Shown: positions 2,266 through 45,700 of the stretch, piece by piece
Numbering within the stretch: the stretch's first letter is position 1
How the letters are laid out: every line of letters starts with the position of its first letter
Assembly: GCA_044360755.1 (NCBI GenBank)
Contig: JBIKJV010000379.1
Coordinates: 1-60,447 of the forward strand
Source: Phycisphaerales bacterium
Lineage (GTDB): Bacteria > Planctomycetota > Phycisphaerae > Phycisphaerales > SM1A02
Reading direction: 5' to 3'
DNA length: 60,447 nt
Made by a program: the position numbers and the translations under genes
The notes under the pieces: model-generated
The model's input: the letters and a program-made list of their open reading frames with translations, nothing else
What the model was told of the DNA's origin: nothing
Database searches by the model: none

Positions 2266-2382
2266 TGACAGGGCAATACATACACACATCACATAATTCA
2301 CTGGCTACCCTATCGTCCATGCGTACACGCATAGGGGCATGCATCTAGTTACGCGCCAACCTTTTCAACCACAAGGAAAATC

Positions 2383-3665: not shown

Positions 3666-3889
3666 AGCTTGTATGGATGGCAAACAGCGACCACACGCAG
3701 ACACTGTTGAGGCAAGACACCCCTACCAAGATTCCACAAAAGATGGCGTGGGTTGCTAGGGTGTTTGCTTCTAATACGCCGCCACACATGTGGAGAGCAC
3801 AAATCATATCTTCAACGGATTGGTGCGTGTTTTCCTCATTAGACGAAGCCAGAGACTGGGCTCAAGCAGTCGTTCTTCTCAACCAATGA
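3662..3889 (+). CDS. hypothetical protein (paralog-like of 3435-3665)
   Basis: 75-aa ORF, ATGA-coupled. C-terminal FSSLDEARDWAQAVVLL motif. Confidence 0.55.
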   Translation: MKLVWMANSDHTQTLLRQDTPTKIPQKMAWVARVFASNTPPHMWRAQIISSTDWCVFSSLDEARDWAQAVVLLNQ

Positions 3890-3898
3890 AAGACCTAT

Positions 3899-4774: not shown

Positions 4775-4783
4775 GGAGTTAAT

Positions 4784-5329
4784 ATGAGACCAACACTTTA
4801 CGACGCCGCTCGGATGTTAACGACAGCGGGTATATCAGCGGACATCAAGTTCGATCCAACGCAAGTTACTAACAGACTCAAGAAGTCTATTCAAAAGCAG
4901 ATCATCAATGGTGTTATCACTGGCGGATGGTCATCGCATGCATCGCGTATCGCCAAGATACTGTGCAAGCAGTACAAGATTCACTACACAGCCAACACTT
5001 GGTATGGTATTAGCTTACCCGTTGTTGCAGTAGAAAACCGCGAGCGGTTTGTCGAGTTAATTCAGGCAGACCTTGCGGCTTATCTATTAGATGGCGACCA
5101 CTACAACCCGCAGTGGGAAAAAACAAATGCCCAAAGCACCATTGACCAAATTAGATCAGGCATGGCGACAGATGTTAGAACGCACAGCAAAGAGTACAAA
5201 GACAAGTTGACAGCTCTTCTTATAGAGACTCGAACACCAGCACAGATTAAGCATGCACAGGAAGTAGCGGCATTGCTTGACTCAAGAGAGCCTATCACCA
5301 TCAAACACTATTTCAACCAAGGAGAGTAA
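4784..5329 (+). CDS. hypothetical protein
   Basis: 181-aa ORF with strong SD (TAAGGAG) upstream. Confidence 0.6.
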   Translation: MRPTLYDAARMLTTAGISADIKFDPTQVTNRLKKSIQKQIINGVITGGWSSHASRIAKILCKQYKIHYTANTWYGISLPVVAVENRERFVELIQADLAAYLLDGDHYNPQWEKTNAQSTIDQIRSGMATDVRTHSKEYKDKLTALLIETRTPAQIKHAQEVAALLDSREPITIKHYFNQGE

Positions 5330-5331
5330 TC

Positions 5332-6441
5332 ATGGCAGTTACATCATTAGACAAAGCCAAGGTGTCCATCGTGACACAGCATCCGTTCTTCGCATCCATA
5401 CTTATGAAGCGACAGCTAATCGAGGATGAGACTATCCCAACAGCGGCAGTAGATCAGCGCGGTCAAATCTACATCAACCCAGTGTGGTTCGACACATTGT
5501 CAGTCGATGAGATTGTGTTCGTGTTAGCCCACGAGATCGGTCATGTCATCGGTCAGCATGCATCCCGTCGAGGTGCGCGTGATGCCAAGAGGTGGAACAT
5601 TGCAGGTGACGCTTGGATCAACGACATGCTCGAGGCATCAGGTATCGGTCAGCCTATCAAGGGTTGCGTTCATATGCCCGGCTCTAAGGATGAGACAGTC
5701 GATGAGATTTACAACAATCTCCCTGACATGCCGCCCGATGGCCCCGGCCCCGGCGGTACAGGCGACGACATCATCGAGCGTGGTACGCCACTTACATCAG
5801 AGGAAGCTACACGCATCGATGCCGAGACCCGTGTCGAGATTGCACAAGCAGCCCAAGCGGCTAAGGCTCAGGGTAAGATGCCAGCCGCATTGGCTAAGAT
5901 CATTGCTGATCTCATTGACCCCGGTACACCATGGCACGAGATTCTCGAGCGCTACATGACTTCGTTCACTCGTGGCGACTACACATGGTCACGCCCTAAC
6001 CGTCGCTTCGCTGATCTTGCGTACTTACCTAGCACTGGCAAGGTAGCTGAGATGGGTGAGATCGTCATCCAAGTCGATGTGTCAGGCTCTATCAGTCAGC
6101 GTGAGTTGGCTTATTACAACGGTCACTTGTCTCGCATCATCGAGCAGTGCAACCCCGCCCGTGTTCATGTCTTGTATGTTGACACTGCGGTATGCAAGCA
6201 TCAGGTGTTTGAGCAGGGTGAGGAAGTAACACTGGAGTTCTACTCTGGCGGTGGTACTGACATGGAGGAAGGCTTTAACTTCATCGCCAAGGAAGGTATC
6301 GAGCCCGAGGTATTCGTCTGTCTGACAGATGGTTACACCGACTTCAATGTCGCCAATGCGCCAAGTTACCCAGTTTTATGGTGTATCTCTAGTGACATTC
6401 AAGCTCCTTACGGCGAGAATATCCACTTTTCACTGGAGTAA
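5332..6441 (+). CDS. vWA-domain protein with N-terminal zincin-like metallopeptidase domain (DUF2201-type)
   Basis: HExxH in LAHEIGHVIGQH. MIDAS DxSxS in IQVDVSGSIS. Partnered with the MoxR-type ATPase at 2383. Confidence 0.8.
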   Translation: MAVTSLDKAKVSIVTQHPFFASILMKRQLIEDETIPTAAVDQRGQIYINPVWFDTLSVDEIVFVLAHEIGHVIGQHASRRGARDAKRWNIAGDAWINDMLEASGIGQPIKGCVHMPGSKDETVDEIYNNLPDMPPDGPGPGGTGDDIIERGTPLTSEEATRIDAETRVEIAQAAQAAKAQGKMPAALAKIIADLIDPGTPWHEILERYMTSFTRGDYTWSRPNRRFADLAYLPSTGKVAEMGEIVIQVDVSGSISQRELAYYNGHLSRIIEQCNPARVHVLYVDTAVCKHQVFEQGEEVTLEFYSGGGTDMEEGFNFIAKEGIEPEVFVCLTDGYTDFNVANAPSYPVLWCISSDIQAPYGENIHFSLE

Positions 6442-6443
6442 TT

Positions 6444-6593
6444 ATGGCTGACAACATCGACGACGCGATCGACCAACTGACCAAGCAGTATGACGAGGTA
6501 CTCAAGGCATGCCACGACGCCTTGGCAGAGGGAGTTTCACAGGCACAACGCGACGCAATTCGCGAACGAATAGCCGAACATCTCGGCAAATAA
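6444..6593 (+). CDS. hypothetical small helical protein (49 aa)
   Basis: Hand-translated MADNIDDAIDQLTKQYDEVLKACHDALAEG... Followed directly by a terminator. Confidence 0.4.
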   Translation: MADNIDDAIDQLTKQYDEVLKACHDALAEGVSQAQRDAIRERIAEHLGK

Positions 6594-6596
6594 CCT

Positions 6597-6620
6597 AGGG
6601 GCGCAAGCCCCTTTCTTTTC
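6597..6620 (+). terminator. rho-independent terminator
   Basis: AGGGGC-GCAA-GCCCCT stem-loop followed by TTCTTTTC. Confidence 0.7.
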
Positions 6621-6639
6621 AACCACAAAGGAAATCATC

Positions 6640-7308
6640 ATGGCAACAGTAAACATTACAAAAGAGTTCAAAGAACGAGTCGAAGCCCGCATCCGCAGTA
6701 TGCACCGCAAGGAGTTAGAAGCTGAGTTACCTAATCTCAATAAGCCTCAGCAGGTAGATGCGAGTTACTTGTATCACTATGGATGTTGGGGTAAGGATTA
6801 CATGCACTTAGTGCATGAGATTCCCAAGGACTGGTTGGCAAAAGTAAACGACAGCAGTGTCGAGATACATGGCACAGGCGAGGACGGCAAGCCGTTATCG
6901 TGCGCTGTTCGGTTCACTGGTATGAACGCCTACCAACGCCCCAAGGACAGCTACTATCAGCACACTCGTTCAGTCGTGCAGTACGCTGATTTGTTGGCTA
7001 TGCCTGAAGTTGTTGCGGGACGCTCCGAAGCTCTCCAAGCATGGGAGGAGAACAAGCAGGTTACTACTATCAAAGAGAAGTGGGCTAAGGTTGAGAAAGA
7101 TATTCTCGAGTTCCTTAACAAGTGCAAGACGCTTAACGAGGCAGTCAAGCTGTTTCCCGGTGTGCGTCTGTATGTTCAGCACGACGATCTCGAGCGCTTA
7201 GATCGTAAGGTCGAGCGCCTCAGTGAGCGCAAGAAGATCGTTGCTGAGATGGCAACCGATGAACTAACCGCAGCAGCCATCGCTGCAAAACTTATGGGGG
7301 CAATATGA
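6640..7308 (+). CDS. hypothetical protein
   Basis: 222-aa ORF preceded by the conserved leader cassette CTTTTCAACCACAAAGGAAA. Confidence 0.6.
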   Translation: MATVNITKEFKERVEARIRSMHRKELEAELPNLNKPQQVDASYLYHYGCWGKDYMHLVHEIPKDWLAKVNDSSVEIHGTGEDGKPLSCAVRFTGMNAYQRPKDSYYQHTRSVVQYADLLAMPEVVAGRSEALQAWEENKQVTTIKEKWAKVEKDILEFLNKCKTLNEAVKLFPGVRLYVQHDDLERLDRKVERLSERKKIVAEMATDELTAAAIAAKLMGAI

Positions 7309-21234: not shown

Positions 21235-21289
21235 CTCCTTTTCGTGGTTGAAAAGAGTAACCCCCGGCGTAAAAACCGGGGGTTTTTTT
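21235..21289. terminator. tandem hairpins / bidirectional terminator at the convergence of the two arms
   Basis: CTCCTTTTC-GTGGTT-GAAAAGAG (21235-21257), then CCCCCGG-CGTAAAAA-CCGGGGG + T7 (21261-21289). On the minus strand the second hairpin is followed by TTACTCTTTTC. Confidence 0.75.
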
Positions 21290-21915: not shown

Positions 21916-24900
21916 TTAAGAAACTGAGCTTACTTGCTCAACAAACCTACGATTTGATTTTGTGGTTTCTACACCACCAACCACGCCACGTTCACGCTTT
22001 CGTGCTTCCGCCGGTACTCGCAACAACTCAGACAGCGGTTGACGCTTATAGCCGTTCTTTGCTCTGGAATCCTGCAACTCTTGCCAACTGGTACGCGCAT
22101 CAGCCATTGCCGCAGCATCGCTTTGGCGAGATGCTTTCAAATACGAGCTCTTAATTTCACCTGCACGCTGCGAGTAAAACTTATCAAACTCTGCAACAAC
22201 TTTCTGCGTATATTGTCTGTCAGTAATGGTCGTTGTGGGAAGACCAACAGCTTGGAAAGCAGTGTCAATCAGGCTGATATCTTCAGGCTTGAGTACCAAG
22301 TCTCCATTGCGCATCGTAATGCCTTCAGCGCCGAAGCGATAACCCTTCATCAGATTGGCAATACCATTTGGCAACGCCAACTCTAAGCCCTTGTAGTATT
22401 CACCCTTGGACATCATGCCAAGCGCGTCGACAAACTTCAGTCCCAAACCGACTGACGGGCCCATCATCCCCACAATCATCTGAGCTGCATCTGCACGCGA
22501 AGTTAAGTTGAACTCCACAAACGGGCCGAATGGCGACGCCACGTTTTCCATTGCCAGACGCTTACCAATAGACTCCAAGCCAAGTGCGGCGGGCACACCA
22601 CGAAGGAGTAAGTCAGCCACAGCGCCGTCACCGATCATGCGACGTAGTTTGTACTCATAGTCATCGGGTTCATCTTCATCACCAAACACGCTAGACAAGA
22701 TGCTTGCAGCTTGAGACACAAACGGTACACCCAACGCACCGCCAAGCACAGCCATGTGTGCAGTAATGTACTTCAATGAGGCACGAGCGATAGCACGCTC
22801 TTCTGCACTGGCACCTTTGAATGAGGTGTGGATCAGCTTAGCCAACATGGACAACTGAATGATCTGGAAGCGTTTGAATTGCAACAAGACCTTAGCACCG
22901 CCGCTCTGCATGACGCGAGGTGTATTGAATCCATCGTAGTTACCATGGCTGTTAGACACTACTTCAGCAGCAAACTTAACGCCATCCGCGCCGGGAGCGC
23001 CTTTGTAAAGGTCAACATATCCGCGGTAAGCAGCAATGGCAGCCGTAGCACGGTTAATTGCTTCAATACGTGCGTTGACATTTTGCAGCTTGAACATCGC
23101 TTTGCCGAGGGGGCCTTTGTCATCTATACGCGCCGTAGCATCTGCATCAACACCAATATCGATCTTGCCCATGCGAACCAGTTCTTCGAGCATAAACCGG
23201 ACATCGGCAGGAGCTTTGTCAAAGTCAATGCGGTCAGAAACACCTAGTCCCGATACAAGGTAGGACATGTCACCGTAGGCACGCTTGATCGCACTGGCGG
23301 AACGGGCATAACCGAGACGACCCGCCATGTATGGCAAAGACAACACGGAAGTCTGAAGCGCCTGCTGGAGGTAGTACGCAGGGCTAGTCGACAAGTGCCA
23401 CAGTGTGGACATACGCAACATGTTTTGCGCCAAGACGCTAGGCTGAGAGTACTCCATGCTGTCCGCGTACCGTGTGTACAGTTCGTTGTACAGAGGCATC
23501 GCCTCTTTGCGGTTGTTGCGAGCCTGATTGCGCATGGTTTCTAGCGCGTCGTTTATAGCGTCGCCATGTTCCATGTTAGCTAAGAAGTGAGCATCAGCAC
23601 GACCGCTAGTGGCCAAGTTGCGCATCATGTTCTTATCAGCACCGGAGACATTCTTACGCTCTAGTTCAGAACGACGAGCGCTGGCTTCAGCCACAGTCAT
23701 CAGATACAGATCAGAAATCGCTTTGTCCAGCTTGGTATCGGTGGATTCTGATTGGCGGTTTGCCAAGTTGCGCAGACGAGCCACAGCCATATGAACATCA
23801 GAACCGCCAGCGTAAGAAGCACTAGCTTCCTTGATACCAGCGTCCTCGGGTTGAATGTCATACTGCCCCGTAGCTTGCAGGTCTGCAGCAATGCTGTCGG
23901 CCTCGCCTTGTGTTTCAGCAAACTGAACTACATAGTGCAGCGGATTGGAGACGTTGTCCTGCAGCCAGTTTTTAGCTTGCTGTGCGTCACCAGTGATCGA
24001 GTCAGCGCCAACGCGGGCTTCTGTACCCTTGGCAGCTTCTTCATACGCAATGAACTCTTTGGACTTGGCAACCACGACGTAATCGCCATAGCGACCGAGG
24101 TAGGCGTATGGCTCCGACACCTCTACATTGCGCAGTCTAGTCATGCGACGGAGCATCTGAGCTTTCTCTTTAGCAAGCCCCTGCAGTAAGTCTAAGTCAT
24201 TACCCGCAGCTTTCTCACGAGCTTCAAACTCACGATTTACTGCAGCCTCGGCGGCTTTCTGTTTCAATCTTAAGGCTTCATAGCCATGATTAAAGACGTC
24301 CTTAATCACCTTCTGAGCAGCCGGCGGAAATGCCTTAAAGCGCTCTTCCAAGTCGGGGTCGGTTTCAAATAGCGTAGTGCCGACTTGTTGCTCGCCGGGG
24401 TAATAGCCCCACTTCTTTTGGACAGTAGAGTCTTGGATGTATTCGTTGACACTGCCCTTACCGACTCCCTTGAGGTTCTCTGGCAGTTTCTCAAACTCGC
24501 CCAAAATGTCTTCGATTCGACGCTCAAACTCTAAGCGGGTACCTTGACGCTCGTACTGGGCTTGCAGATATTTAGCCGCAGAAGGCATGTACTTTGTAGC
24601 CAAGCCAATCACATCTTCTGTAATTGCGGATGCATACAAACCGCGTTTAGCCAAAGTCGAAATGTTTGTCCACTGCTCACGAGCGGACTTCTGCAGTGGC
24701 TTAGGCAGTTTGTCGATAGTGCGTTGGACTACGCTTTGGTCAGCTGCGTTCTTGCCAAACTTCATCTTTGCAGCAGCGCTATCAAATAGCTTCTGAGCTT
24801 CCGCACGGAGTGCATCAGCCGCTGCGGCGTCTTTCTCTTTGCTGGCACGGGTCAAGAGGCGGATAGCTTTGTCAATATTGGTATTGCCAGCCTTGGGCTT

Positions 24901-27900
24901 TTCATCCAACACAGGATTGGCTTTATCTGGCAGCCCTTCAAAGCGTCTCTCTTTGCTCAGGTAAGCACCACCACGACCTGTTGAGGTCAGAGTGTTTTCC
25001 GGACTAACATCCATGGTCGCTGCAGGGAACGATTTTACGCGTTCCTCAAAGCTCATGCCCATACGCGATTGGACGTTCCTAGCTTCAGCTTCACCTGCCA
25101 CCAAACGATAGAGTTCGTGGGCAACGTCTTTACCATCAGTAAGTTCGACGACTCGGGCTTTTAGTTCTTTGTTAGCCGCGTAGTGCTCGTCGGAGATAGT
25201 TTTAATTTTGTCGGAGTAAAACCGAATCTCCTTCATTTGTTCAGCGTAGTTTGCAACGCGCTTTAGGACGTTGACCTTTTTGTTTTCTTCCTTGAACTTT
25301 TTCTCAAGAACGCCCTTGGCTGTTTCCAATCGAGTGACTTCACTATCTAAAGCACGAACTTTAGAATACATTGGAGCAAGCTCAGCCGTATTGGCAAGTA
25401 AAGCATCAACCGCCCCCATTAAGTCGGCAGCCCTATTCTTTTCAACAAACTTGTCAAAGTTTGAAGAGTAGCGTTCACCACGGGCTTTGCGAGCTTGACT
25501 TTCTAGTTCAGACGCATCATAAGCATCAATTGCTTTTTGCAATTCATTACGCAGTTTTGTAAGAGCCGCCTTATTAGACAGGTCGCTACCCTGCGGACTT
25601 GAACCGTTTTCAAATTTCTCTTTTGATTGAATCCAGTGCTGGACTTCGTGCAGTACGGTCGACAGGGGGTCACGGGCGTACGGTGTAACAACCAATTTTT
25701 TAGTTTTGGGGTCAAACCAACCTTGCGTGCTTCCCCATACGTCCATCATTACTTTACGTTTTTCGAACGTAACGTCCTTCAACTCAGGATATTGAGCAAA
25801 CAATTCAGGGTGGTCTAAAACGTCGCTTAGTTTGAATTCAGTGTAAAGATCAATGTCTTTAAAGTCTTGTTTAAACTTTGCTTGACTGTCATCAAACTCA
25901 AAGCGCCATTTATTATCAGTACCTTTGTACCAGCCGGTTTCTTTCCAAATTGTTTCTGGGTCAACACCATTGGCCGTGTCTAGTTGAGCTTGAACTAATT
26001 CAAGTCGACGTTCAAAAGTTTTTGCTCCAGTAGCTTCGACTCCGCCAAAGCCGAATTTCATAGTGTCTGCAGTAATTTTAGTTTTCTTACCGGACAGTTC
26101 CAGTTTAGCTGCGCCAAAGGCCAAGTTAACTACGTCTTGCGCAGTTAGTGTTTCTGGTTTAAATCCAAGTTTAGTCAGAGCAACTTTAAAGGCGCTCCAC
26201 AAAGTACGGAACCACGTTTGCAAAGCACCGGATTGATTTTTAACAGCAGTAGGATCAATGCCGGCCATCATGGCTTCTTCGATGAAGTACGCCAGCACCT
26301 CTGATCGTTTTTGATCTTGTGCGGTCTCAGCCTTCATCACGCGATCGGCTGCCCTAACGGCTAAAATTGATTCAATTGTGGACTCATCGCCCTTTGCCCA
26401 ATCAACAATTTGCTGAGTAAGTTTGTCGTAGGCTGCTTTTGGCAATAAGTTTTCTAAGCCTAAGTGGGCTCCAACCTCATGCATAAACTTGGCACGACCT
26501 TGGCCTTGTTTGATTCTGTTGGCGATCAAGAACGCTTGGCCTGTCGGAGTTGCTACTCCATATGCACCTTCTAACATTAAGGCCGCGCCAACAGTTTGGC
26601 GATTTTTGTCCGAGGACATCAACAGATCAGTTACGCTATCAACAATAACTAGCTTGCGGCCAAGGATGTCGGCGCGGATAAAGTTCTTGATTTCTGCTTT
26701 TAGCTTGGGAGCGGTGTAGGGTTTATCGACGCGACCGTCTCTGCCGAACTTCAAACCAGCTTTTGCCAACTTAGTCAACTCAGTGTTGACATCATCTTCA
26801 GTCCAGTTGTCTGGGCCAAAGCCAATGAAGTTTTGTTGCTGTGCTTTTGTCAGGTCAGCAAACTTAGGAGCTGTGGGGTAGCTAGATGCTACTTTGTCCC
26901 ACGCTTGGGCTGCTTGCTCGCTGTTGGTGAGGACTTGGGTTTCACCTTGGCTGGCAGGCTTTTCGGCACGCCGTACTTGCTTGCCCACTCCTTGGCCAGC
27001 TTCGGTTTTTGGCTGAACAGGTACGCTTGCTGTGCTTTTGACTTGAACGGCATTTGTTTTCTCCAGTTTAGCCATCTTGACAGACAGCTCTTTTGTTTGG
27101 CCGCTCTTGAAATCAACGGTCACGATAGTGGCATCGCCGTCGCCGGAGAAGCCTTTAACCACACCAGTACCCAACTTAGGGTTTACCACAGTGTCGCCCA
27201 CCTCAAGACCTTTACGGTCGGCAGCTAACTTGGCAGCACGTTCTGCACGGAATTTTGCCGCTTCTGCTTCTTTAGCGGCCTCCTTAAACATGTCGACTTC
27301 TTCAGCAGCTTTTTGTGCGGCTTCGGTACTTGGCGGCTGCTTAGTCGGCTTCGGTACTTTTTTCGCTGCAGTCAATTTAGTCGTCAGCGCTGTGTATCGT
27401 TCCGTCAGTTCGTTAATGCGCTTTGCAGCGGCAGCTTCTGCTTCCGGCAAGCCGAACTGTTTAAGCTCGTCCGCTGCAACTTTTAATTCAGCAATCTTGT
27501 CAGCTAGGCTAACCAACTGAACAGCCATTTGGCTGCCGGCAGTACTGGCTTTTTGCCACTCGCGAGAATCATCTGCCAGCTCTTCAACATCCGATTCAGC
27601 TGTATCTGAAATGACTTGGTTCTCAGATTCGACAATACCGCCCTCACCAACAGCCTCGTTTGCCTGCGTTAGATCAACAGCAGCTTCTTTTGTAGACTGG
27701 ATACCAAGTTCAGTAAACACTTGATTGCGATCAAACCCCATGGCTACAGCAACGTTAGCCAGTTTTTCAGGATTACCGATCTGTCTTACACGCGAAGCAT
27801 CTACACCAAACGTAGCGCCGATCTCTTTTTGCATTTTGACGCGGTCGCCCCTAGGCACGGCTCGGCGGGCAGTGATATACGCCTGAATGATTTTGCGGTC

Positions 27901-29742
27901 ACGGTCTTTGTTACTGCTGTCTGCGAGTTGAGATTCAATGACTTCGTTAAGTTCAACCTTGGTGAAATTTTTCTGATCTTGTCGCTTGCCTGCTGCATCT
28001 GCCAATGTAGCGTTGATACCACCGGTGTTGCCTGTGGCTCGAGCAATCTCGACGTAGTCGTCTACAGCGGCATCCTGATCCGGCAGAGCTTCCTGCTGGA
28101 CTAAACGCAGTGTCGTATTGGGTTTTATCGGGGTTTTTTCTTGACGTCGAGTTTGTTCTGCTTTTACGAGGCCGTACTCTGCATCACTAAGATCAACGTT
28201 AGTAAGTTCAGTCTTAAGCTGATCGTCTGTTAGCGCACTAACTTTTTCTGGTGTAACCGCTCCACGAGTTAAAGTAGTTACAGTGGTAGATGGTTGGCCG
28301 GCGGTGTTTGGAAGAAGACCAACTTGTTGAAGTGGGGCTCCAGTTGTTGCGGCACCTCCACCCACTGCTCCTGCGAGAGAAGCATCTGATCCTGCAGCTC
28401 CCAGAGTTCCCGGAACGACAGCGCCCCCGACTCCCACGCTTCCTGCAGGCTGCTGTACAGTAGAAACTGCTGCGCCACGGGGACTCCTTGCTCGAATGAT
28501 CGCGCCAATAGTGTCAGTAGCAAACTTGAATTTGTTTTCGGACAGCGCGTTGAGGATGGGTTCGGCTTCTTCAGAGGTAGGATCAATACCCTTAGCCACC
28601 ATGTAGTCGTAAATACTACGCGACTTCTTTGTCGGTTTAATATTCAGTTCGTTAAGCGCTTCGTCTGTCTTGCTAAAAATTGACGGCGTAGTATCGGCAG
28701 CCTCTGTGGTAGGCGCAGTCAGATCAGTAGGGGCAGCAGCACTTGTAGTCGTCGTAGCAACAGGCGCGGTAACTTCAGCCGTAGAAGTATCTGCTGGCGC
28801 AGTCAAATCAGTTTCCTGACTCACCAACGATGTCGTTGTTGGCTGTGCAGCAGGGGCGGTTGCAGAAATATCAAGCCCGGTAGGAGCTTGAGCTGGCGGA
28901 ACCGGAGTCTCTGGCTGAGTTAAATCAATCTCGCCTTGGGCTGGGCGCGTACCGGCGACAGCAGAAAGCCCTGCACGAATAGCGCCACCACCCAAGAAGG
29001 CCTTGGCACCAGCCACACCATATTCATCAAAGGCTTCGGGGCCGGTAAGTGTCTTATACGCACCATAACGTTCCAACGCTGTCTGTGGAATTTCAGTAAT
29101 TGTTTCTTCTACGCCGCCACGAAGGGCCTGTCGGCTCAACGCGCCCCACAGACTTTCACCAGCTTCACGGGCTAAAAACTGAGTACCTTGACCGGCAATC
29201 TTTCCGGCAATACGTTCGGCACCACCAAAACGCTCTAGGGCTGCAGCTGGGATGGTAGCTCCCAAGGCGCGTGGACGATCATCAATACCAGCCTCACGCT
29301 GTTCCGACCGAATACCGCCGTATGTCTGAGCTACGATGGGCGCTAAACCGCCTACCAAACCGCCAAGCTGCTGGCCGCCAATAATACCTAAAGGGCCAAG
29401 AGGGGTGCCAAGAAAGCCGCCTATAGCGCGGCCAGCTAACTGACCACCAACGGCCAAGCCGACTTGAGGGACAATTTCGCCAACAGCTTCGCGTGCTGTG
29501 GTAAACGGACGACTTAAGACATCCTGAAACGACTGAATTTCGCTAGGATTGCGGCGAACAACACCCGCACCATAACTCTCCAAAGCACCGCCGGTGTCTT
29601 CCAAGCCAACATCACGCAGGGTAGAACCAAGGCCAGAAGCAAACTGCCCAGAGGCGCGTCTTACATCTGACAAAACTCCGGGGGCATTGGGCTTCTCAGG
29701 GTTGAAGAGGTTGTTGTTTACAGCGTCCCAAATGCCAGCCAT
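21916..29742 (-). CDS. giant virion-associated polyvalent/ejection protein (2608 aa)
   Basis: SD AAGGATG. Gly-zipper N-terminus, T/A/P linkers, sigma region-4-like HTH (~27760-27912), UvrD/PcrA-type Tudor (~27059-27208), HEVGAH (~26458-26487), LHEVQHWIQ zincin-like module (~25560-25960), hydrophobic C-terminal third. Confidence 0.8.
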   Translation of the reverse strand: MAGIWDAVNNNLFNPEKPNAPGVLSDVRRASGQFASGLGSTLRDVGLEDTGGALESYGAGVVRRNPSEIQSFQDVLSRPFTTAREAVGEIVPQVGLAVGGQLAGRAIGGFLGTPLGPLGIIGGQQLGGLVGGLAPIVAQTYGGIRSEQREAGIDDRPRALGATIPAAALERFGGAERIAGKIAGQGTQFLAREAGESLWGALSRQALRGGVEETITEIPQTALERYGAYKTLTGPEAFDEYGVAGAKAFLGGGAIRAGLSAVAGTRPAQGEIDLTQPETPVPPAQAPTGLDISATAPAAQPTTTSLVSQETDLTAPADTSTAEVTAPVATTTTSAAAPTDLTAPTTEAADTTPSIFSKTDEALNELNIKPTKKSRSIYDYMVAKGIDPTSEEAEPILNALSENKFKFATDTIGAIIRARSPRGAAVSTVQQPAGSVGVGGAVVPGTLGAAGSDASLAGAVGGGAATTGAPLQQVGLLPNTAGQPSTTVTTLTRGAVTPEKVSALTDDQLKTELTNVDLSDAEYGLVKAEQTRRQEKTPIKPNTTLRLVQQEALPDQDAAVDDYVEIARATGNTGGINATLADAAGKRQDQKNFTKVELNEVIESQLADSSNKDRDRKIIQAYITARRAVPRGDRVKMQKEIGATFGVDASRVRQIGNPEKLANVAVAMGFDRNQVFTELGIQSTKEAAVDLTQANEAVGEGGIVESENQVISDTAESDVEELADDSREWQKASTAGSQMAVQLVSLADKIAELKVAADELKQFGLPEAEAAAAKRINELTERYTALTTKLTAAKKVPKPTKQPPSTEAAQKAAEEVDMFKEAAKEAEAAKFRAERAAKLAADRKGLEVGDTVVNPKLGTGVVKGFSGDGDATIVTVDFKSGQTKELSVKMAKLEKTNAVQVKSTASVPVQPKTEAGQGVGKQVRRAEKPASQGETQVLTNSEQAAQAWDKVASSYPTAPKFADLTKAQQQNFIGFGPDNWTEDDVNTELTKLAKAGLKFGRDGRVDKPYTAPKLKAEIKNFIRADILGRKLVIVDSVTDLLMSSDKNRQTVGAALMLEGAYGVATPTGQAFLIANRIKQGQGRAKFMHEVGAHLGLENLLPKAAYDKLTQQIVDWAKGDESTIESILAVRAADRVMKAETAQDQKRSEVLAYFIEEAMMAGIDPTAVKNQSGALQTWFRTLWSAFKVALTKLGFKPETLTAQDVVNLAFGAAKLELSGKKTKITADTMKFGFGGVEATGAKTFERRLELVQAQLDTANGVDPETIWKETGWYKGTDNKWRFEFDDSQAKFKQDFKDIDLYTEFKLSDVLDHPELFAQYPELKDVTFEKRKVMMDVWGSTQGWFDPKTKKLVVTPYARDPLSTVLHEVQHWIQSKEKFENGSSPQGSDLSNKAALTKLRNELQKAIDAYDASELESQARKARGERYSSNFDKFVEKNRAADLMGAVDALLANTAELAPMYSKVRALDSEVTRLETAKGVLEKKFKEENKKVNVLKRVANYAEQMKEIRFYSDKIKTISDEHYAANKELKARVVELTDGKDVAHELYRLVAGEAEARNVQSRMGMSFEERVKSFPAATMDVSPENTLTSTGRGGAYLSKERRFEGLPDKANPVLDEKPKAGNTNIDKAIRLLTRASKEKDAAAADALRAEAQKLFDSAAAKMKFGKNAADQSVVQRTIDKLPKPLQKSAREQWTNISTLAKRGLYASAITEDVIGLATKYMPSAAKYLQAQYERQGTRLEFERRIEDILGEFEKLPENLKGVGKGSVNEYIQDSTVQKKWGYYPGEQQVGTTLFETDPDLEERFKAFPPAAQKVIKDVFNHGYEALRLKQKAAEAAVNREFEAREKAAGNDLDLLQGLAKEKAQMLRRMTRLRNVEVSEPYAYLGRYGDYVVVAKSKEFIAYEEAAKGTEARVGADSITGDAQQAKNWLQDNVSNPLHYVVQFAETQGEADSIAADLQATGQYDIQPEDAGIKEASASYAGGSDVHMAVARLRNLANRQSESTDTKLDKAISDLYLMTVAEASARRSELERKNVSGADKNMMRNLATSGRADAHFLANMEHGDAINDALETMRNQARNNRKEAMPLYNELYTRYADSMEYSQPSVLAQNMLRMSTLWHLSTSPAYYLQQALQTSVLSLPYMAGRLGYARSASAIKRAYGDMSYLVSGLGVSDRIDFDKAPADVRFMLEELVRMGKIDIGVDADATARIDDKGPLGKAMFKLQNVNARIEAINRATAAIAAYRGYVDLYKGAPGADGVKFAAEVVSNSHGNYDGFNTPRVMQSGGAKVLLQFKRFQIIQLSMLAKLIHTSFKGASAEERAIARASLKYITAHMAVLGGALGVPFVSQAASILSSVFGDEDEPDDYEYKLRRMIGDGAVADLLLRGVPAALGLESIGKRLAMENVASPFGPFVEFNLTSRADAAQMIVGMMGPSVGLGLKFVDALGMMSKGEYYKGLELALPNGIANLMKGYRFGAEGITMRNGDLVLKPEDISLIDTAFQAVGLPTTTITDRQYTQKVVAEFDKFYSQRAGEIKSSYLKASRQSDAAAMADARTSWQELQDSRAKNGYKRQPLSELLRVPAEARKRERGVVGGVETTKSNRRFVEQVSSVS

Positions 29743-29751
29743 GGTGCATCC

Positions 29752-31248
29752 TTATTTCGGAATTTGATTAATCAGCCCTTGGCGTACGGCTTCACGTTCC
29801 GGAGTTTGTAACCAAGGCAAGCTACCCAAGTCTACCTGACTCTTTGGGTATGTCGCATTGTAAGCGTCAACGTCTTTTTTGGTAAGTGGTTTTTTAGTAG
29901 TCGGATCAATTCCGGCCTGTATTGCTGCTGAAGCAATGGGGGGAGCGTATCCACGACGTACAAAAAACGCAACGCGTTGCTTGTCTATTTCTTCGGGGGT
30001 AGCTTGAGCCTCAATCAGCCCTCCCTCAGCCTTCAACCAAGCTTCGTTATCGGCGTCGCGTACCATGCCTTTCTTAAGTGCCTCAATGGCTGTTGGCACG
30101 TCCTTGTATGTACCTTTCGTAACCAAGCCTTCTGCAGTTTTAACCAGAGCTTCCGGAGAAGAAGACTTGCCGCCGGACTTATAAAGACTGCCCAGAGCAT
30201 TTTGCGTAGCAGCCGTAGCGTTACTGGCTGCAACAGAAGCGTTAGTCTTGAGTACGTCTAAATCATACTGTGCAAGTTGCAAAAACCCACCGGGTTTAGC
30301 TTTGGCGTCAATAATCATGCCCAACTCACGTTCGCTCTTGGCATCAGCAAATACTGAACGAGTACCGTCTTGGTTGACTTGGATGTAGCGAAACGGGTTT
30401 TTCGGGTCACGTTCCAGCTTGAACGAAGTGTTTTGCTCGTCAAACCATTCCAAGGCCGACACCACACCCTTAGCCCTAGACTGACGGTAGCCCTCTTCAA
30501 ACTTTTTAGCCTGCAACGTAATGTTGTTTAGCTCAGTTGTAGTGTAGCTAGCTTGCAACCGCTGACGCTCTTCCACCCCTTGAGTCCGCTCAATCAAATC
30601 AAGAATGGCGTTAGTCCGGTCTTCAGGCTTTTCGAATTTTTGTTTGTTAATTTCATCAAAACCCGTGTCAAAAGCCTGTTGTTTTTTTTGTTTGCGTAGA
30701 GCATCTGCAGCTTGAATCTCGGCCAACGTCCCTTGCGTTCTAGCGCCTGCGGTTTGAACATTCTGCAGCTCAATAGCCCCTTCTAATCTCTGTCTTTCAA
30801 GGGGATACATTTCGTCTTGTCGTTTTGCGAGGTCAATTTCTCGACGCATACGCAAACCCGCAGCAGGATCACGTTCAGCAATAACATCGGCCATTGCATA
30901 TTGTCTAACCCGATCAATTTCTTGTTGCGAGGGCGCGCGGTCAAACATCTGCTGGCCGACCTGATAGCGGCTCAAACCAATTCTCTGACCTTGAACTGGC
31001 ATTTGAGGCGCGTAGTTCACCTGCTCTTGGGGAGTCAAGCCAAACATCTCGGCATCTTGAGCTGCCATTGCTTGCGCTTCTGCACGAGCCCGGCCAATTT
31101 CGTCAGGCGTAGCTTCACGCTGTTGAACTTCCTTGGCAGTCAGAGCTTTTGCTTCTCGGATGCCGAGCTGCTCTTTACTTTGGTTGTAGGCGTCAAGGAT
31201 GCCTTGACCTAAACGTTCTCCGGCTTGAAGACCTGCTGCAAATCCCAT
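29752..31248 (-). CDS. putative internal virion/ejection protein (coiled-coil rich)
   Basis: 498-aa ORF with GGAGG SD. Position between two ejection-type proteins. No enzymatic motif seen. Confidence 0.55.
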   Translation of the reverse strand: MGFAAGLQAGERLGQGILDAYNQSKEQLGIREAKALTAKEVQQREATPDEIGRARAEAQAMAAQDAEMFGLTPQEQVNYAPQMPVQGQRIGLSRYQVGQQMFDRAPSQQEIDRVRQYAMADVIAERDPAAGLRMRREIDLAKRQDEMYPLERQRLEGAIELQNVQTAGARTQGTLAEIQAADALRKQKKQQAFDTGFDEINKQKFEKPEDRTNAILDLIERTQGVEERQRLQASYTTTELNNITLQAKKFEEGYRQSRAKGVVSALEWFDEQNTSFKLERDPKNPFRYIQVNQDGTRSVFADAKSERELGMIIDAKAKPGGFLQLAQYDLDVLKTNASVAASNATAATQNALGSLYKSGGKSSSPEALVKTAEGLVTKGTYKDVPTAIEALKKGMVRDADNEAWLKAEGGLIEAQATPEEIDKQRVAFFVRRGYAPPIASAAIQAGIDPTTKKPLTKKDVDAYNATYPKSQVDLGSLPWLQTPEREAVRQGLINQIPK

Positions 31249-31250
31249 GA

Positions 31251-32288
31251 TTAAACCTCCAACATCCGAATGCCGAGACCGGCGTAGTTAACTGCTTTGT
31301 ACCCGTCAGGTCTTGTAACAACCATCCGCGGGAACTTCTTCTCAACTTCATCAGCCATAACGCCAATAAAGCGTCTGCCAGTACCGTTTCTATATTCAAA
31401 CTCATAAAGCGGCAACTTGGTACGCTCGTCGCGACCAACAACTTTAATGTTCTCTTTCAAGCGGCGATCAGAGCCGCCCATCATAAATGGCAGTGCAGCA
31501 GCACCAAGCTTGCCGCCAGCGCCAACAAGTCCACCGATCATTTCGCCTTGAGCGTTCAAGCCTGCATTAAATGCACTTGTCTGCGAATTCAGGATGTTGC
31601 CTTGACCAGTGATACCCATCTGAGCGCCAGCTAGGGAGTAGCCAGCACCTTGGCCAAATGATCGGCTAAACTGATCCCCCGGAGCCATTGCAGAAGTGAG
31701 ACCGGTAGAACCTGCAGCGGTAGCCGCACTATAAGCTCCAGTCGAAGCGCCAGCCAAATTACGACCCAAGCCGGTGACGTCCATGCTACGAGCAAAACCA
31801 ATGCCTTCAGCTTGTCGACGGGCGTTGGTAGCTGCACCCGCAGTCATACTTGCAAGGTTTATAGCGTTTTGGTTTCTTAGCATCAGCCCGGCACCTGAAG
31901 AAGGGTTAAGACCTCGACGAGCCATCTCACGATTGCTAACACCCTGCGCAGTTTGGAACGCGTTTGCTGCGTCGGCAGCGGCTTGGGCAGCGATCTGGGC
32001 TCTGTTACCCTCGGTGTTGTAATTCTGCACTTGGGCTACTAGCCCAGTCTCCATCGGGCGGAACGTTCGCAGCTGGTAATCGTAGTAATCCTGCGCCTGC
32101 TTCATCTGCTGTTCCTGCGCAGCCATCTGCTGGGTGTAGACTCGTTCAGCCAGAGGTTTCATTTCCTCGTACTGACGCTGTGCGAAGTCCATTTGACGAT
32201 TGCCCAAACGCTCAGCCGTAGCGATGCCTTTTTCTGTGGCAGCGGTCATAGCCGAATAGTCTGGTGCTGGTTGCGATTTTCCGCCCAT
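31251..32288 (-). CDS. Gly/Ala/Gln-rich virion protein with C-terminal S74-type intramolecular chaperone domain
   Basis: ATG 32288 with AAGGAG SD. C-terminus GGSDRRLKENIKVVG...YEFEY...GVMADEV matches the Peptidase_S74 chaperone signature (~31251-31478). Confidence 0.65.
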   Translation of the reverse strand: MGGKSQPAPDYSAMTAATEKGIATAERLGNRQMDFAQRQYEEMKPLAERVYTQQMAAQEQQMKQAQDYYDYQLRTFRPMETGLVAQVQNYNTEGNRAQIAAQAAADAANAFQTAQGVSNREMARRGLNPSSGAGLMLRNQNAINLASMTAGAATNARRQAEGIGFARSMDVTGLGRNLAGASTGAYSAATAAGSTGLTSAMAPGDQFSRSFGQGAGYSLAGAQMGITGQGNILNSQTSAFNAGLNAQGEMIGGLVGAGGKLGAAALPFMMGGSDRRLKENIKVVGRDERTKLPLYEFEYRNGTGRRFIGVMADEVEKKFPRMVVTRPDGYKAVNYAGLGIRMLEV

Positions 32289-32290
32289 AT

Positions 32291-32707
32291 TTACTCCTTG
32301 CGCAGCCAACGACAGGTGTCAGGCCGCATTACCAAAATCTGCATGTCAGCGCCGGGAGCGCCGTCTTTCATTACGAACTCTTCCTCAAACCCTAGATGCT
32401 TATCGAATTCTATGATATGCGGTTCATTTGTGGGCACCATACCAGTGAGTCTTTTTAACTGGCAGTGGTTAAATGCGTAGTTGCACACATGCTCGAAGAG
32501 GGGGATGATCTGCTTCGTCTGCCGTGCGATGGCTATATGACACGTAGCGTTGGAACCATTGTAGTTGTTTATGACTACTCCGGCTAGAACCTCGTCACCT
32601 TGCATGACACCAAGCGCATAGAAACTACCCCAGTCTGCGCCCTGACCGACGCGCTCAGCAACCCAAGCGCCAATACGATCCTTCTGGTCAAAGACAAGTT
32701 CTGCCAT
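32291..32707 (-). CDS. GNAT-fold acetyltransferase-like protein
   Basis: ATG 32707 (the track start at 32743 is TTG). NYAFNHCQLKRLTGMVPTNEPHIIEFDKHLGFEEEFVMKD resembles the RimJ/L-type GNAT C-terminal half. AcCoA motif not clear. Confidence 0.5.
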   Translation of the reverse strand: MAELVFDQKDRIGAWVAERVGQGADWGSFYALGVMQGDEVLAGVVINNYNGSNATCHIAIARQTKQIIPLFEHVCNYAFNHCQLKRLTGMVPTNEPHIIEFDKHLGFEEEFVMKDGAPGADMQILVMRPDTCRWLRKE

Positions 32708-32721
32708 GTGCGTATTATGTC

Positions 32722-33153
32722 TTATTGCGGTGGAGTTGGCCAAGTGATTTCTGTAGGATAACCTGCCTGCGCAGTAATGTCACGCAACTCTTGGCGGTAG
32801 GTTGCCCAAGCTGTCTTGGTAGAGATCGGAACATCGGGTAACTGAGTCCAGTCACTGGCAACTAATTTAGCCTTACGTTCCATAAGCACTGCCCTTGTCA
32901 GCTGCTGCAGTTCCCTTTGTGCGATGGCCGCAGTCTGTGCGGCTTCTAACGCGGCTTGGTCTGGATTTGATTCCCAGCACAGCGTGGTTGTGTTCCAGAT
33001 GTCAAACTCAGAGGCTTTGGTTATGTAGTTCTCAGGGGGTTCGCCATTTCGCAGATACCAGCCGGAGGCATCAATGCCCTCGACCATGCGTTCGGAGCTA
33101 AAGCCCGTGTTTACCAGTGGGCCGTTTTCGCCATCCGTGTAATAGAAATGCAT
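32722..33153 (-). CDS. tail fibre assembly (chaperone) protein
   Basis: C-terminus SDWTQLPDVPISTKTAWATYRQELRDITAQAGYPTEITWPTPP is typical of Tfa/gpU'-like chaperones. Sits immediately downstream of the fibre gene. Confidence 0.7.
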   Translation of the reverse strand: MHFYYTDGENGPLVNTGFSSERMVEGIDASGWYLRNGEPPENYITKASEFDIWNTTTLCWESNPDQAALEAAQTAAIAQRELQQLTRAVLMERKAKLVASDWTQLPDVPISTKTAWATYRQELRDITAQAGYPTEITWPTPPQ

Positions 33154-42779: not shown

Positions 42780-45700
42780 TTAATCTCCGATGAGTTTGCT
42801 GATGAGGGATTCAAGGTGTGCTACTCGAGCTCGCAAGTCTACGACCTCTTTGGCTAATTCTACAGCGGAGGCGAGCGCCGCGCCACCATAGTTTACGGAC
42901 AGAGTTTGCATCTCATCCTTAGCCGTCATGATTGCCTGTGGAAGCAACTTCTGGAACGACTGAGCTGAAACACCAACTTGCGCCATTTCTGTCTCGTCAA
43001 TGCGGTCGTAGATACCAACTTTGACTTCGGCAAGACGAGTAACATAGTCCTCTGGCATATCTCGCCAGTTGGTCTTAAGACGTTCATCTGAGTAAGCTGT
43101 GATGTTACCTGATGCAACAATTGAGTTAGAAATCGCACAACGGAATGAACCGTTGTTAATGATGAGCAAGCCGTGGTCAGTCAAGTTGCCAGCAGCGCCA
43201 CCAGTGTTAGGATGTGACCAAGCCATGCCGTAGAGGGTACCTAAACTCGTTCCATCAGCGGCAAGTTTATAGCTGTCACCCATGGCAAACACGCCTTGGT
43301 AACGGTATGAGCTGTATACGCCAACAACAGTATTACCGTAGTTGTCGTCAATGTACATGTTGCCGTTGGCTCGGGTTGCTCTGGCAGCGGTAATACCCCA
43401 AGACCCGGAAGCCGCAGTTTGGATAGCTGCTGCTGCAGCTCCGGCTGTCCAGCTACGAATATAGTAATCACTGCTGTTAAAACCAGCAAAATACCCAAGC
43501 CCTGAGCCGTTGCGTTCTGTACCGCCTCCGCTGGTATAGAAGTAGCTATTTTGGATATAGCCGTTGCCGTCGCGCTGAACAATAGTGTTTGCACCACCAG
43601 TTTGGTTTGGGCCGTAACCTTGCAAAGTACTTGCGGTAGTTGCAGAAACGGCGTTTTCGTTGTACTTCAGTGGTCTATAAGCTGTTTGAGTAGTTTGTAC
43701 AGACCCAGAAAGCGACGATTCATATTGAATAGCAAACTGATCTGCGTAGTTCCCGTCAAACTGTGTGTAGCCGTTTACAACGTTAACGACATCCAACCCA
43801 GTGTAGTTACTAGCAGGGAACGCTACCCAAAGGTTGTACGCACTGTCGTACCCAAAGCGAACATCTATAGCTGTACCAGAACCATCCATAAGGCTGGCTT
43901 GTGGTGAGTACCAGTAGTTGCCGCCGTAGTTGTAACCGCTGATGCGAATGTCGTAGCTTTCGTAGCCTTGGTAAATTCGAACTACGAACGACAACATCCA
44001 GCTAGTGGCTGCTAAAATTCGAACTTTATAGTACCCGCTACTTCTACTATCGCTAGTACCAAAGTGCGCTCGTTGATGAAAAGCAGTCGATGATTTTGAA
44101 CCTACAGTTGCGGCATTGCCGGTAATGCTAATACCCCACGTACCAGACGCCCCGGAACCTGTTAGTGATGGGCTGTAGCTGGTGTAGTTGCCAGCGTGAA
44201 GTGCTGTACTTCCAGCGATAGTTAGTTGGTTTCTAAAACCAGAAGTGCCGCTATCTTGGTTTACCCAAAACTGGGTAGCATTGGTGATGTTGTTGCCATT
44301 ACTTTGGTACTGGTCTTCGTCAATCACACGGAAAACAGGCCCAGTGTCGCCAGCGCCGTAGACGGTCACGCCTTCGTTGTCGATCATCAACCCGCCAGTA
44401 TCGTTATCAGACACTTCGATGTTGATAGCCCCAGTAGCGCCGTTTAGAGCAAACGGGAAACCAGCATTAAGCGTTCCGGAACCTGCGGGTCTCCATCCAA
44501 TGCGAGCAGTATTAGAACCATTAAGCCTTATTTCAGCAGTAGCATAAAGATTTCCGCTAACAGTACCCCCACTCAAAGGCAGAGCGTATGAACTGTAATT
44601 ACCGCTGTGCAAATACGGCAGGCCTCCGGTGTACTTATAAATATCGCCATCAACATAAACGGTTTTATTGAAATAAAACTGCGGACGATCAGTTTGTATA
44701 TGCGCATAGCTAGAATTTTGCGCACCAACATCAACGTAGCCATAAGAAGTTTGGCTGCGAATTGCTCCTGAACCACCACCAGTGATGTAGTTGCTGTCGT
44801 CGCCCAAGTAGTATTCACTTGCTCGAACTTTCCCATCAACTTTGCCATTGCTCAAATATTGAACAAATCGGGTGCCAAACCAAGTGCCGTGAGTATTGTT
44901 CGACTGACGCTGACCAAACTCAGCCCAACCGTTAGCATTTCCAGTGGTTCCGTTGCCTAGATAAAGCTCAAATGCCTGACTCCAATCATGACTACGACCC
45001 CAGACAAACTGCCCGCTACTGCGTATGTACCAAGTATTTGTACCGCTGTAGTCTGCAATGACCCTATAGCCGCCTCTGGTGTAATCGTCAAAGTAGCTGT
45101 AAGCAGGGCTGTAACTGGTGTAATTACCTGCATGAAGTAACTGATTACCATTTAAAGTCGCTACGCCTGAGCCGTTGCCAATAATAAAATCGGCCCCACC
45201 CGTCGTGGTAAAACGATGACGATTTCCACTTCCGGCTCTTTGCCAGCTATCGGTCCCGTCCGCATCAAATGTAAGACGATATAGATCAAGACCGGCTGAT
45301 GCACTAATTGTGAGCTTTCCGCTCAACGTACCACCACCCAAAGGCAAAGCGTATGAGCTGTAATTCCCTGCGTGGAGGACTTGGTTGCCTGCCTGCTGGA
45401 TTGCTCCTTCAACATTCAAGCCATTGCTTGGGTTTGCAGTTGCTGTATAGCCGCTGCCAATCGTCACACCACCATGGATGTGCATCTTCTTTCCAGAAAC
45501 AACAGAACCGCCGCCGCCAAAAGACCAAGTGCCAGTAGCGCCATATATCCATAGGTAGTCGGTACCGCCAGAATCTGTAGCGGTAATGCCTGTCCACGCG
45601 GTTCCATTGCCGTTCAGCGTAATTTGCGTATCGGTAGAGTCTTGGAACGTGACACGACCACTAATTGTTCCGCCACTAATGGGAAGGGCGTAAGTGCCAA

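Follow-up and report, generated by a model that had tools for sequence, protein, structure and literature searches.

The 60,447-nt stretch of DNA analyzed here (contig JBIKJV010000379.1; hereafter, the window) is from an uncultivated podophage-like phage of ~60.3 kb, and a 2608-aa open reading frame (ORF) on its minus strand encodes a giant, probably virion-borne protein with an internal Tudor domain of the UvrD/PcrA type. The domain is identifiable by sequence and by structure, its conservation reflects purifying selection, and its pairing with an upstream helix-turn-helix (HTH) module is recurrent among related giant proteins. An uncultivated phage lineage has taken over a docking domain of a bacterial repair helicase and maintains it under strong selection. 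Most of what is known about polyvalent ejected proteins comes from computation, and few of their cargo domains have been tested; the polyvalent framework is already known, and the captured Tudor domain within it appears to be the new element. We hypothesize, as an evenly balanced proposition, that the giant belongs to the ejected polyvalent proteins and that its HTH-Tudor cassette links DNA to the hairpin on which UvrD docks, either in the beta subunit of RNA polymerase (RNAP) or in UvrB. Such a tether would bear on how podophages that have no polymerase of their own secure host RNAP at DNA entry.

A UvrD/PcrA-type Tudor domain in a giant phage protein

The first 127 nt of the window recur exactly at its end (window 1-127 = 60321-60447), and the assembly is therefore circularly closed and represents a complete phage genome with a unique length of 60,320 bp. 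Near the 3' end of its late/structural arm lies the 2608-aa ORF that a first-pass annotation, made from the letters alone, had described. We confirmed the ORF, on the minus strand, and the motifs quoted from the translation, namely, DRDRKII at aa 613-619, SRVRQIGNPEKL at aa 650-661 (nt 27760-27795), VGDTVVNPKLGTG at aa 848-860 (nt 27163-27201), HEVGAH at aa 1088-1093 (nt 26464-26481), ETGWYKG at aa 1268, HEVQH at aa 1365-1369, and YRLVAGEAEARNV at aa 1545-1557 (nt 25072-25110), the last lying slightly beyond the range given for it. A phmmer search of the whole protein against the PDB gave no match. The layout of the protein is as follows, where counts refer to 120 listed homologs among at least 187.

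21916..29742, minus strand: giant ORF, 2608 aa, ATG start; mosaic polyvalent-type protein, probably virion-borne; at least 187 giant homologs
28873..29742, minus strand: N-terminal Gly-rich conserved region, aa 1-290; in about 80 of 120
28063..28872, minus strand: Thr/Ala/Pro-rich low-complexity linker, aa 291-560, from composition per 100 residues
27703..27975, minus strand: six-helix HTH module, aa 590-680; sigma-70 region 4-like sequence, below threshold; HTH of this type in 21 of 120
27208..27702, minus strand: acidic stretch and long helices between HTH and Tudor, aa 681-845
27058..27207, minus strand: UvrD/PcrA-type Tudor domain, aa 846-895; sequence and structure matches, purifying selection; in 28 of 120
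26068..26745, minus strand: conserved domain with HEVGAHLG (aa 1088-1095), aa ~1000-1225
25063..26049, minus strand: LPD23 (aa 1232-1291) and zincin-like module with HEVQH (aa 1365), coiled-coil insert, and GEAEA (aa 1550); in 8 of 120
21985..23928, minus strand: C-terminal PLxRFG domain (NF032893), aa 1939-2586, by which the family is anchored as its constant part; in 109 of 120

The alignment of the Tudor region with the C-terminal domain (CTD) of UvrD/PcrA, given in the first-pass annotation, is borne out by profile and structure searches. In a Pfam search of the whole protein, PcrA_UvrD_tudor (PF21196) matched aa 848-895 with an E value of 0.028; the score was 14.7 bits for the whole protein and 22.3 bits for the fragment, the latter just short of the cut-off of 23.9, and the relative P0082 has a precomputed PF21196 match. 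The C terminus of the NCBIfam UvrD equivalog models matched at E=2.9e-6 with the fragment and at 1.5e-5 with the whole protein. When a profile built from ten family variants of the Tudor domain (profile A2) was searched against the PDB, the nine top matches were all UvrD/PcrA CTDs, including those of Deinococcus radiodurans UvrD (E=1.4e-8), PcrA (9.3e-6), and Escherichia coli UvrD (7e-5).

Structure prediction points to the same family. In an AlphaFold2 (AF2) model of aa 590-903, the Tudor part forms a small barrel with four beta strands as assigned by DSSP and a local predicted local distance difference test (pLDDT) score of ~70, and Foldseek superposes it on solved UvrD/PcrA CTDs in the five-stranded Tudor fold. 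The best match is 7egs_B, the UvrD CTD from a crystal complex with the RNAP lobe, with a template modeling (TM) score of 0.86 and a root mean square deviation (rmsd) of 1.2 Å; the further top matches are 5dma (PcrA Tudor, TM 0.83), 6yi2, 9dqs, and 7egt_B (UvrD CTD with UvrB, TM 0.89). All of these have an rmsd of 1.2 to 1.8 Å, with target TM scores of 0.80 to 0.89, or lower (0.62) for the longer 6yi2 construct; for 7egs_B, 5dma, and 7egt_B the probability is 1.00.

The Tudor domain is also the best-conserved module of the protein, with a median identity to the query of 84%, where the PLxRFG anchor reaches 37% and the HTH module 40%. In the gene DNA of four relatives, the synonymous divergence (pS) of the Tudor codons was 0.59, 0.75, and 0.73, and 0.38 for P0057, while the nonsynonymous divergence (pN) was 0.02 to 0.13 over the four pairs and 0.09 to 0.13 in the three with high pS. 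Over the same pairs, pN of the PLxRFG anchor was 0.41 to 0.46, except in P0017 (~0.15). The ratio of nonsynonymous to synonymous rates (dN/dS) for the Tudor domain is about 0.04 to 0.11, with synonymous sites near saturation. As pS approaches saturation while pN is low, we attribute the conservation of the Tudor domain to purifying selection rather than to recent transfer. Recent recombination was considered as a source of the identity and was rejected on the same saturation in three of the four pairs, P0057 being less diverged.

Each of three HTH variants is found with the Tudor domain downstream of it and the helical spacer in between, an order that never varies, and the pairing is therefore recurrent. 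The spacer (aa 681-845) has the conserved motif DDxREWQKASTAGSQ, taken from the invariant columns of alignment A3, and its helices are modeled by AF2 with low to moderate confidence. The capture of a UvrD-type Tudor domain, its constraint, and its pairing with an HTH module appear to be undescribed in the searchable literature, in which our searches for links between phage Tudor domains and RNAP returned nothing, and the combination appears to be absent from cultured phage genomes: tblastn of the HTH and Tudor modules against 50,697 phage records gave no match except one weak Tudor match, in MT835525.

Two side observations concern the Tudor domain and its surroundings. Many uncharacterized phage proteins of 45 to 90 aa in BFVD, such as Q19XS8 of Mycobacterium phage Wildcat, weakly match the Tudor/SH3-like model, and small stand-alone barrels of this kind may, on such model matches, form a wider, unstudied phage class. 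Directly after the Tudor domain (aa 896-934; window ~26940-27057, minus strand), a linear motif, AVQV-x-S...VQP-x-x-EAGQGVGKQVRRA-x-KPA, stands in otherwise disordered surroundings; it is present in 17 of 149 family members, some of them Tudor-less (P0024), and could serve in processing or docking.

Virion-gene setting and the proposed tether

Placement of a giant polyvalent-type protein within the virion-gene arm, as the first-pass annotation had it, is supported. The protein contains LPD23 and at least six distinct modules, is encoded in the late arm, and has relatives with ART-PolyVal (ART, ADP-ribosyltransferase) and LPD39 domains. Two of its neighbors are homologs of phage JC1 proteins, the 547-aa protein of gp61 (E=8e-77) and the 352-aa protein of gp64 (E=2e-17), both of which were detected by mass spectrometry in CsCl-purified virions (PMC9144972). 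The same virions yielded 51 peptides of the giant JC1 gp69 (PMC9144972), the only giant of this phage group for which we found virion mass-spectrometry evidence, and the 2608-aa gene holds the same place in the gene order as gp69. Gene order and flanking virion genes are likewise shared with the “DarB-like” giants (4500 to 4900 aa) of Bcep22-, PEp14-, and POI1126-type podophages. The PLxRFG end is common to POI1126 gp30 (E=2e-50) and PEp14 gp27 (E=7e-29), and these two share with JC1 gp69 a methylase-helicase core that is absent here. By analogy with JC1, the giant protein is probably packaged in the virion and ejected with the DNA.

The first-pass annotation had further taken a Gly-zipper hydrophobic N terminus, Thr/Ala/Pro linkers, and a hydrophobic C-terminal third as signs of an ejected protein. 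The Gly-rich region and the linker are indeed present, the former with a median identity of 52% in the 83 homologs with a qualifying match, whereas aa 1-290 contain no strongly hydrophobic window and have no Pfam match. A hydrophobic character of the C-terminal third did not hold up: that part is the PLxRFG domain and has a single hydrophobic stretch, near aa 2330.

What the Tudor domain might bind can be judged from its cellular relatives. The PcrA/UvrD Tudor domain has been shown experimentally to bind RNAP beta (PMC5397179, PMC8318588); with any one of the PcrA substitutions H681A, W684A, K712A, and L714A, RNAP is no longer pulled down, and K708A in UvrD weakens RNAP remodeling (PMC5397179). 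Its target is a beta-hairpin “helicase interaction motif,” [VIL]-D-x-x-T-G-E-[VIL]-[VILT], which both UvrB and the SI1 insert of RpoB contain; UvrB and RNAP compete for the domain (PMC8318588). In the profile A2 alignment, the phage Tudor domain retains K884 (K712 in PcrA), L886 (L714), and F878 on the partner-binding face and has N854 and L857 where PcrA has H681 and W684; all four RNAP-binding positions are invariant in the phage family. It resembles the UvrD/PcrA CTD (PF21196; 5dma, 6yi2, and 7egs) in sequence, in fold, and in the three retained residues, and differs from it at the two replaced positions and in being internal to a putative virion protein rather than at the C terminus of a superfamily 1 (SF1) helicase. 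The strict motif [VIL]DxxTGE[VIL][VILT] was sought in all six frames of the phage and gave no match, and the partner of the Tudor domain is therefore probably a host protein.

No RNAP-like ORF was present among those examined with PHROGs or Pfam, with all ORFs of more than 600 aa otherwise assigned, and neither the giant protein nor the other scanned ORFs matched Sigma70_r2 or Sigma70_r3, in agreement with the first reading of the genome as having neither an RNAP gene nor a sigma region 2. For polyvalent proteins, injection and a part in establishing transcription have been proposed (PMC5512222). In the mechanism we propose, the Gly-rich N terminus and the PLxRFG domain would presumably serve incorporation and ejection, and the center would be an exchangeable effector zone made up of the HTH module, the helical spacer, the Tudor domain, an HExGxH domain, and the LPD23/zincin-like peptidase. 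After ejection, the Tudor domain would dock on the exposed beta-hairpin helicase interaction motif (in the lobe/SI1 of RNAP beta and also in UvrB), and the HTH module would hold DNA, so that the two together would tether host RNAP to the entering genome and favor transcription early in infection or DNA entry driven by transcription. The zincin-like module would divide the polyprotein into its working parts, probably by self-processing. The hairpin in question normally recruits UvrD/PcrA.

RNAP beta seems to us the more attractive target because the phage has no polymerase, because CarD/CdnL offer a parallel, and because in the relative P0030 an ART-PolyVal domain follows the same cassette. More tentatively, and at odds we would put well short of even, the captured UvrD Tudor domain and the HTH module would form an adaptor, non-enzymatic and carried in the virion, through which host RNAP is brought to the genome. 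Such an adaptor would stand in for the enzymatic activity of the N4 virion RNA polymerase, and non-covalent RNAP capture would join ADP-ribosylation, sigma appropriation, and virion polymerases in the phage repertoire; relatives with an ART beside the Tudor domain would then use the latter as a targeting domain for covalent RNAP modification.

Comparison with known systems places the cassette between several of them. The logic of CarD/CdnL is the same, in that a Tudor domain gripping RNAP beta is joined to a DNA-binding helical domain, and CdnL, the Mfd RID, and CarD are lower-ranked Foldseek matches to the Tudor model. However, the Pfam CarD_TRCF_RID score of 13.8 bits (E=0.063) falls short of the cut-off of 23, and the cassette has the opposite domain order, a spacer of ~165 residues, and an expected site on beta that is the SI1/lobe hairpin rather than beta1. 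Like the N4 virion RNA polymerase among the N4 ejection proteins, the giant is the largest and last encoded of adjoining putative virion genes (352, 498, and 2608 aa), and it would by inference be delivered with the DNA to start transcription; it differs in having no polymerase domain, so that it would have to borrow the host enzyme. With the phage-type polyvalent proteins of Iyer et al. (2017, PMC5512222) it shares LPD23, the zincin-like HExxH, mosaic content, and a virion-gene context, whereas the main text of that study has neither a Tudor domain nor a sigma-like HTH, only “other HTH domains,” and its modules with a transcription theme are N4-type RNAP and covalent modifiers, not non-covalent RNAP docking.

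Several observations weigh against the proposed tether. Two of the positions needed for RNAP pull-down by PcrA are changed in the phage domain, with N854 in place of H681 and L857 in place of W684 (Asn and Leu where UvrD/PcrA have His and Trp/Phe), and both changes are fixed across the phage family; since the docking lysine is kept but the face is altered, RNAP docking, which the first-pass annotation had suggested for this module, is plausible rather than established. Because the Tudor family also binds UvrB, RNAP is not the sole candidate target, and UvrB is just as legitimate a candidate. The AF2 model of the cassette has low overall confidence (pLDDT 58.7), and the selection estimate is based on 60 codons only. 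The zincin-like module has no Pfam MPTase-PolyVal match, and its profile search against the PDB returned only coiled-coil noise. Finally, the giant protein has no significant BLASTP similarity to JC1 gp69, and in the absence of this direct homology the argument for a virion protein is downgraded to synteny and mosaic links.

The main rival to RNAP as the target is a second explanation, which we think rather improbable. Here the Tudor domain would target UvrB or other proteins with a TGE hairpin, or would act as a decoy displacing UvrD/PcrA, and would block repair, R-loop removal, or a UvrD-dependent host response instead of recruiting RNAP. UvrB is bound through the same surface and competes with RNAP (PMC8318588), 7egt_B, the UvrD CTD with UvrB, is among the top structural matches, and a change of target could lie behind the fixed replacements of His and Trp. 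On the other hand, we found no evidence that UvrD or UvrB limits phages of this kind, and the adjacent HTH module and the missing phage RNAP fit a role in transcription at least as well. The absence of the helicase interaction motif from the phage proteome points to a host partner. If UvrB or the partners of UvrD are the target, an unrecognized conflict between phages and the UvrD network would come into view.

Somewhat less probable again is that the cassette has no host target and that its HTH and Tudor domains bind the phage DNA end or virion components, as a pilot or capsid-internal organizer; the conservation would then stem from the constraints of assembly. The place of the gene among structural genes, the scaffold of constant N and C termini, the frequency of small Tudor/SH3-like folds in uncharacterized phage proteins, and the presence of an HTH in most members, with the Tudor domain optional, would all suit such a role. 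However, the Tudor domain is of the UvrD/PcrA type by sequence and not just by fold, it is far more constrained than the presumed structural anchor, and most members dispense with it, unlike a core assembly element.

The HTH module and sigma-70 region 4

The first-pass annotation had read a sigma-70 region 4.2 signature in the HTH module and had built on it the idea of a virion-delivered region 4 mimic that sits on the beta-flap or at the -35 element and reprograms host RNAP in concert with the Tudor domain. We consider this idea very unlikely and suggest that it should be dropped. The sequence similarity behind it is real but weak: a profile of the close family (A1) searched against the PDB returned 28 matches, all 28 of them sigma factors, with a best E value of 0.0049, and 9 of 25 diverse members match Sigma70_r4 at an E value of 1 or better. 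Yet every score is below its curated cut-off. Pfam Sigma70_r4 matched aa 613-655 at E=0.093, with 12.7 bits for the whole protein and 19.4 bits for the fragment against a cut-off of 24.1; NCBIfam sigma70-ECF gave E values of 0.03 to 0.34. When distant members were added to make a broader HTH profile, the best sigma E value worsened from 0.0049 to 0.085.

Structure does not strengthen the case. Modeled alone, aa 590-680 form six helices with confidence (pLDDT 87), and Foldseek finds nothing significant for this model, the best match being Spo0A (E=1.1) and sigma factors lying in the noise, with region 4 of SigD (3vfz_B) reaching only E=3.2 and a TM score of 0.63. The string RVRQI occurs only in close relatives (RVRQIGN), the distant ones having VRKIGN, VDKIGN, or VRKYGN, and the recognition helix, of 7 to 8 residues, is cut off by a nearly invariant Gly-Asn, which most members extend to GNP. 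Equivalents of the -35-contacting Arg and Glu are not kept in the profile A1 alignment.

The distribution of the module is also informative. An exhaustive search of 1.84 billion representative proteins gave 36 matches to the HTH, almost only in giant proteins and typically at aa ~600-800, with a few near the start of apparently truncated proteins. Three matches are out of family: one protein has canonical sigma-4 repeats (E=9e-4), which speaks for a relationship with region 4, and the repeat proteins P0152 and P0153 match other parts of the module. Within the family, a second HTH type stands at the same position in 25 of the 120 listed members and comes close to Sigma70_r4_2 (24.6 bits against a cut-off of 25.7), which again leans toward sigma; the two sequence types together account for 46 of the 120. 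Representatives of the remaining members have sub-threshold matches to HTH_23, Sigma70_r4, KorA, CENP-B_N, and others in the same region. As members swap unrelated HTH types, generic DNA binding is favored over mimicry of a specific surface, and the module is more likely a fast-evolving simple HTH serving as a DNA-binding element than a copy of one sigma surface.

Two proteins from these searches are worth recording. In P0154 (334 aa), a match of the exhaustive search, ankyrin repeats precede two canonical copies of sigma-70 region 4.2 in tandem and region 2 is missing, an unusual architecture for a stand-alone sigma-4 protein. P0152 (753 aa) has about nine tandem HTH-like repeats (…W-x-x-NPEILA-x-x-AEETGKTV-x-EL…) that match the second half of the HTH module.

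Mosaic family, peptidase-like modules, and neighboring genes

At least 187 giant proteins of about 1,900 to 3,300 aa, all of them metagenomic, match the query, and typically only the C-terminal ~36% aligns well. Homologs that are 97 to 100% identical in their N- and C-terminal parts can drop to 61 to 65% in the HTH module, and we therefore regard the protein as a recombining mosaic with a constant scaffold and a variable center. In relatives, the variable center contains ART-PolyVal, LPD39, ParB-like, and further domains. P0030 (L006, gene 101-7207) has an HTH, a Tudor domain (aa 817-864), and ART-PolyVal (aa 1207-1376, E=1e-28), and its ADP-ribosyltransferase downstream of a putative RNAP-docking domain recalls T4 Alt. 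Megablast of the giant gene against the 50,697 phage records gave no match, and no relative turned up when GTDB species genomes were scanned for the HTH-Tudor cassette, hence no prophage clue to the host.

The constant part of the family is best defined at the C terminus, where NF032893 matches aa 1939-2586 with E=1.6e-86 and 291.3 bits against a cut-off of 100, over profile positions 26 to 672 of 681. The PLxRFG domain has tblastn matches in 75 phage records, and a literature search found no experimental work on it. That the giant is a DarB-like anti-restriction protein, the RefSeq name of its homologs in cultured phages, is improbable in the extreme: phrog_10089 (“DarB-like antirestriction”) matches at E=8e-47 and tblastn matches fall on genes so named, but the former match is confined to profile positions 3919 to 4637 of 4647, i.e., the PLxRFG C terminus, JC1 gp69, which has the domains in question, shows no significant similarity, and the N6-adenine methyltransferase and SF2 (SWI2/SNF2-like) helicase were not detected anywhere in the protein, which refutes the identity at the domain level.

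Two peptidase-like modules follow the Tudor domain. LPD23 is identified at aa 1232-1291 (E=3.5e-17), and phrog_13543 and phrog_21376 match aa 1245-1386. After LPD23 come LLHE[VIL]QH and, 120 to 185 residues on, GExEA, the two being separated by a variable coiled-coil insert; six homologs (alignment A4), only 25 to 57% identical to the module in the window, retain HExxH and GExEA without exception. HExxH plus Glu with inserts is the arrangement given for polyvalent-protein metallopeptidases by Iyer et al. (PMC5512222). The LPD/zincin-like module of the first-pass annotation is thus confirmed at the motif level, as a zincin-like assignment from sequence. The HEVGAH motif, which had also been taken as metallopeptidase-like, is present as well but belongs to a separate domain (aa ~1000-1225) with an invariant H-E-x-G-x-H-x-G, not the canonical zincin motif, and several invariant Glu residues. 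This HExGxH domain is conserved in 53 homologs and in alignment A7, has no relative in Pfam or in the PDB profile search (coiled-coil noise only), and shows no relation to the zincin-like module by hhalign; it may represent a novel domain for metal binding or catalysis.

The genome is laid out in two convergent arms. The plus-strand arm (346-21209) carries replication genes for a DNA polymerase, an exonuclease, a helicase, and a 1012-aa DUF927 primase-helicase. The minus-strand late arm runs from 58752 down to 21652 and encodes, in order, the terminase, portal, major head protein, a 1934-aa fiber with a Peptidase_S74 chaperone, lysis genes, the 547-aa virion protein, a 1242-aa tail fiber, a fiber-assembly protein, an acetyltransferase, the 352-aa virion protein, a 498-aa protein, the 2608-aa protein, and three small ORFs. 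No cultured phage has a large terminase more than 40% identical to the one encoded here, and the presence of Rz-like spanins indicates a Gram-negative host. Features around the giant gene are as follows.

31251..32309, minus strand: 352-aa homolog of the virion-associated JC1 gp64 (BLASTP E=2e-17; phrog_8003, phrog_4287; PF13884)
29752..31248, minus strand: 498-aa protein upstream of the giant ORF, holding the place of the 510-aa virion protein gp68 in phage JC1
21652..21906, minus strand: 84-aa stand-alone DUF6321 ORF directly 3' of the giant gene (PF19846, E=3.9e-19)
21259..21284: bidirectional terminator-like site between the convergent replication and late arms, a GC-rich hairpin with T-runs on both strands

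The 498-aa protein has no family match and no significant similarity to JC1 gp68. The 352-aa gp64 homolog has a C-terminal Peptidase_S74 intramolecular-chaperone domain at aa 280-330, and the 1934-aa fiber (42780-48584) likewise carries this domain, the usual home of which is in tail fibers and spikes. The DUF6321 sequence occurs in PHROGs as the C-terminal end of far larger proteins (e.g., phrog_3477, positions 850 to 928 of 928), and a DUF6321 ORF is also located 3' of the giant gene in the relative P0057 (L007); judged by sequence, it appears to be either a conserved partner or a domain that has become detached. The acetyltransferase gene (32291-32743, minus strand) stands amid the virion genes, an arrangement shared with Bcep22-like phages (JC1 gp63).

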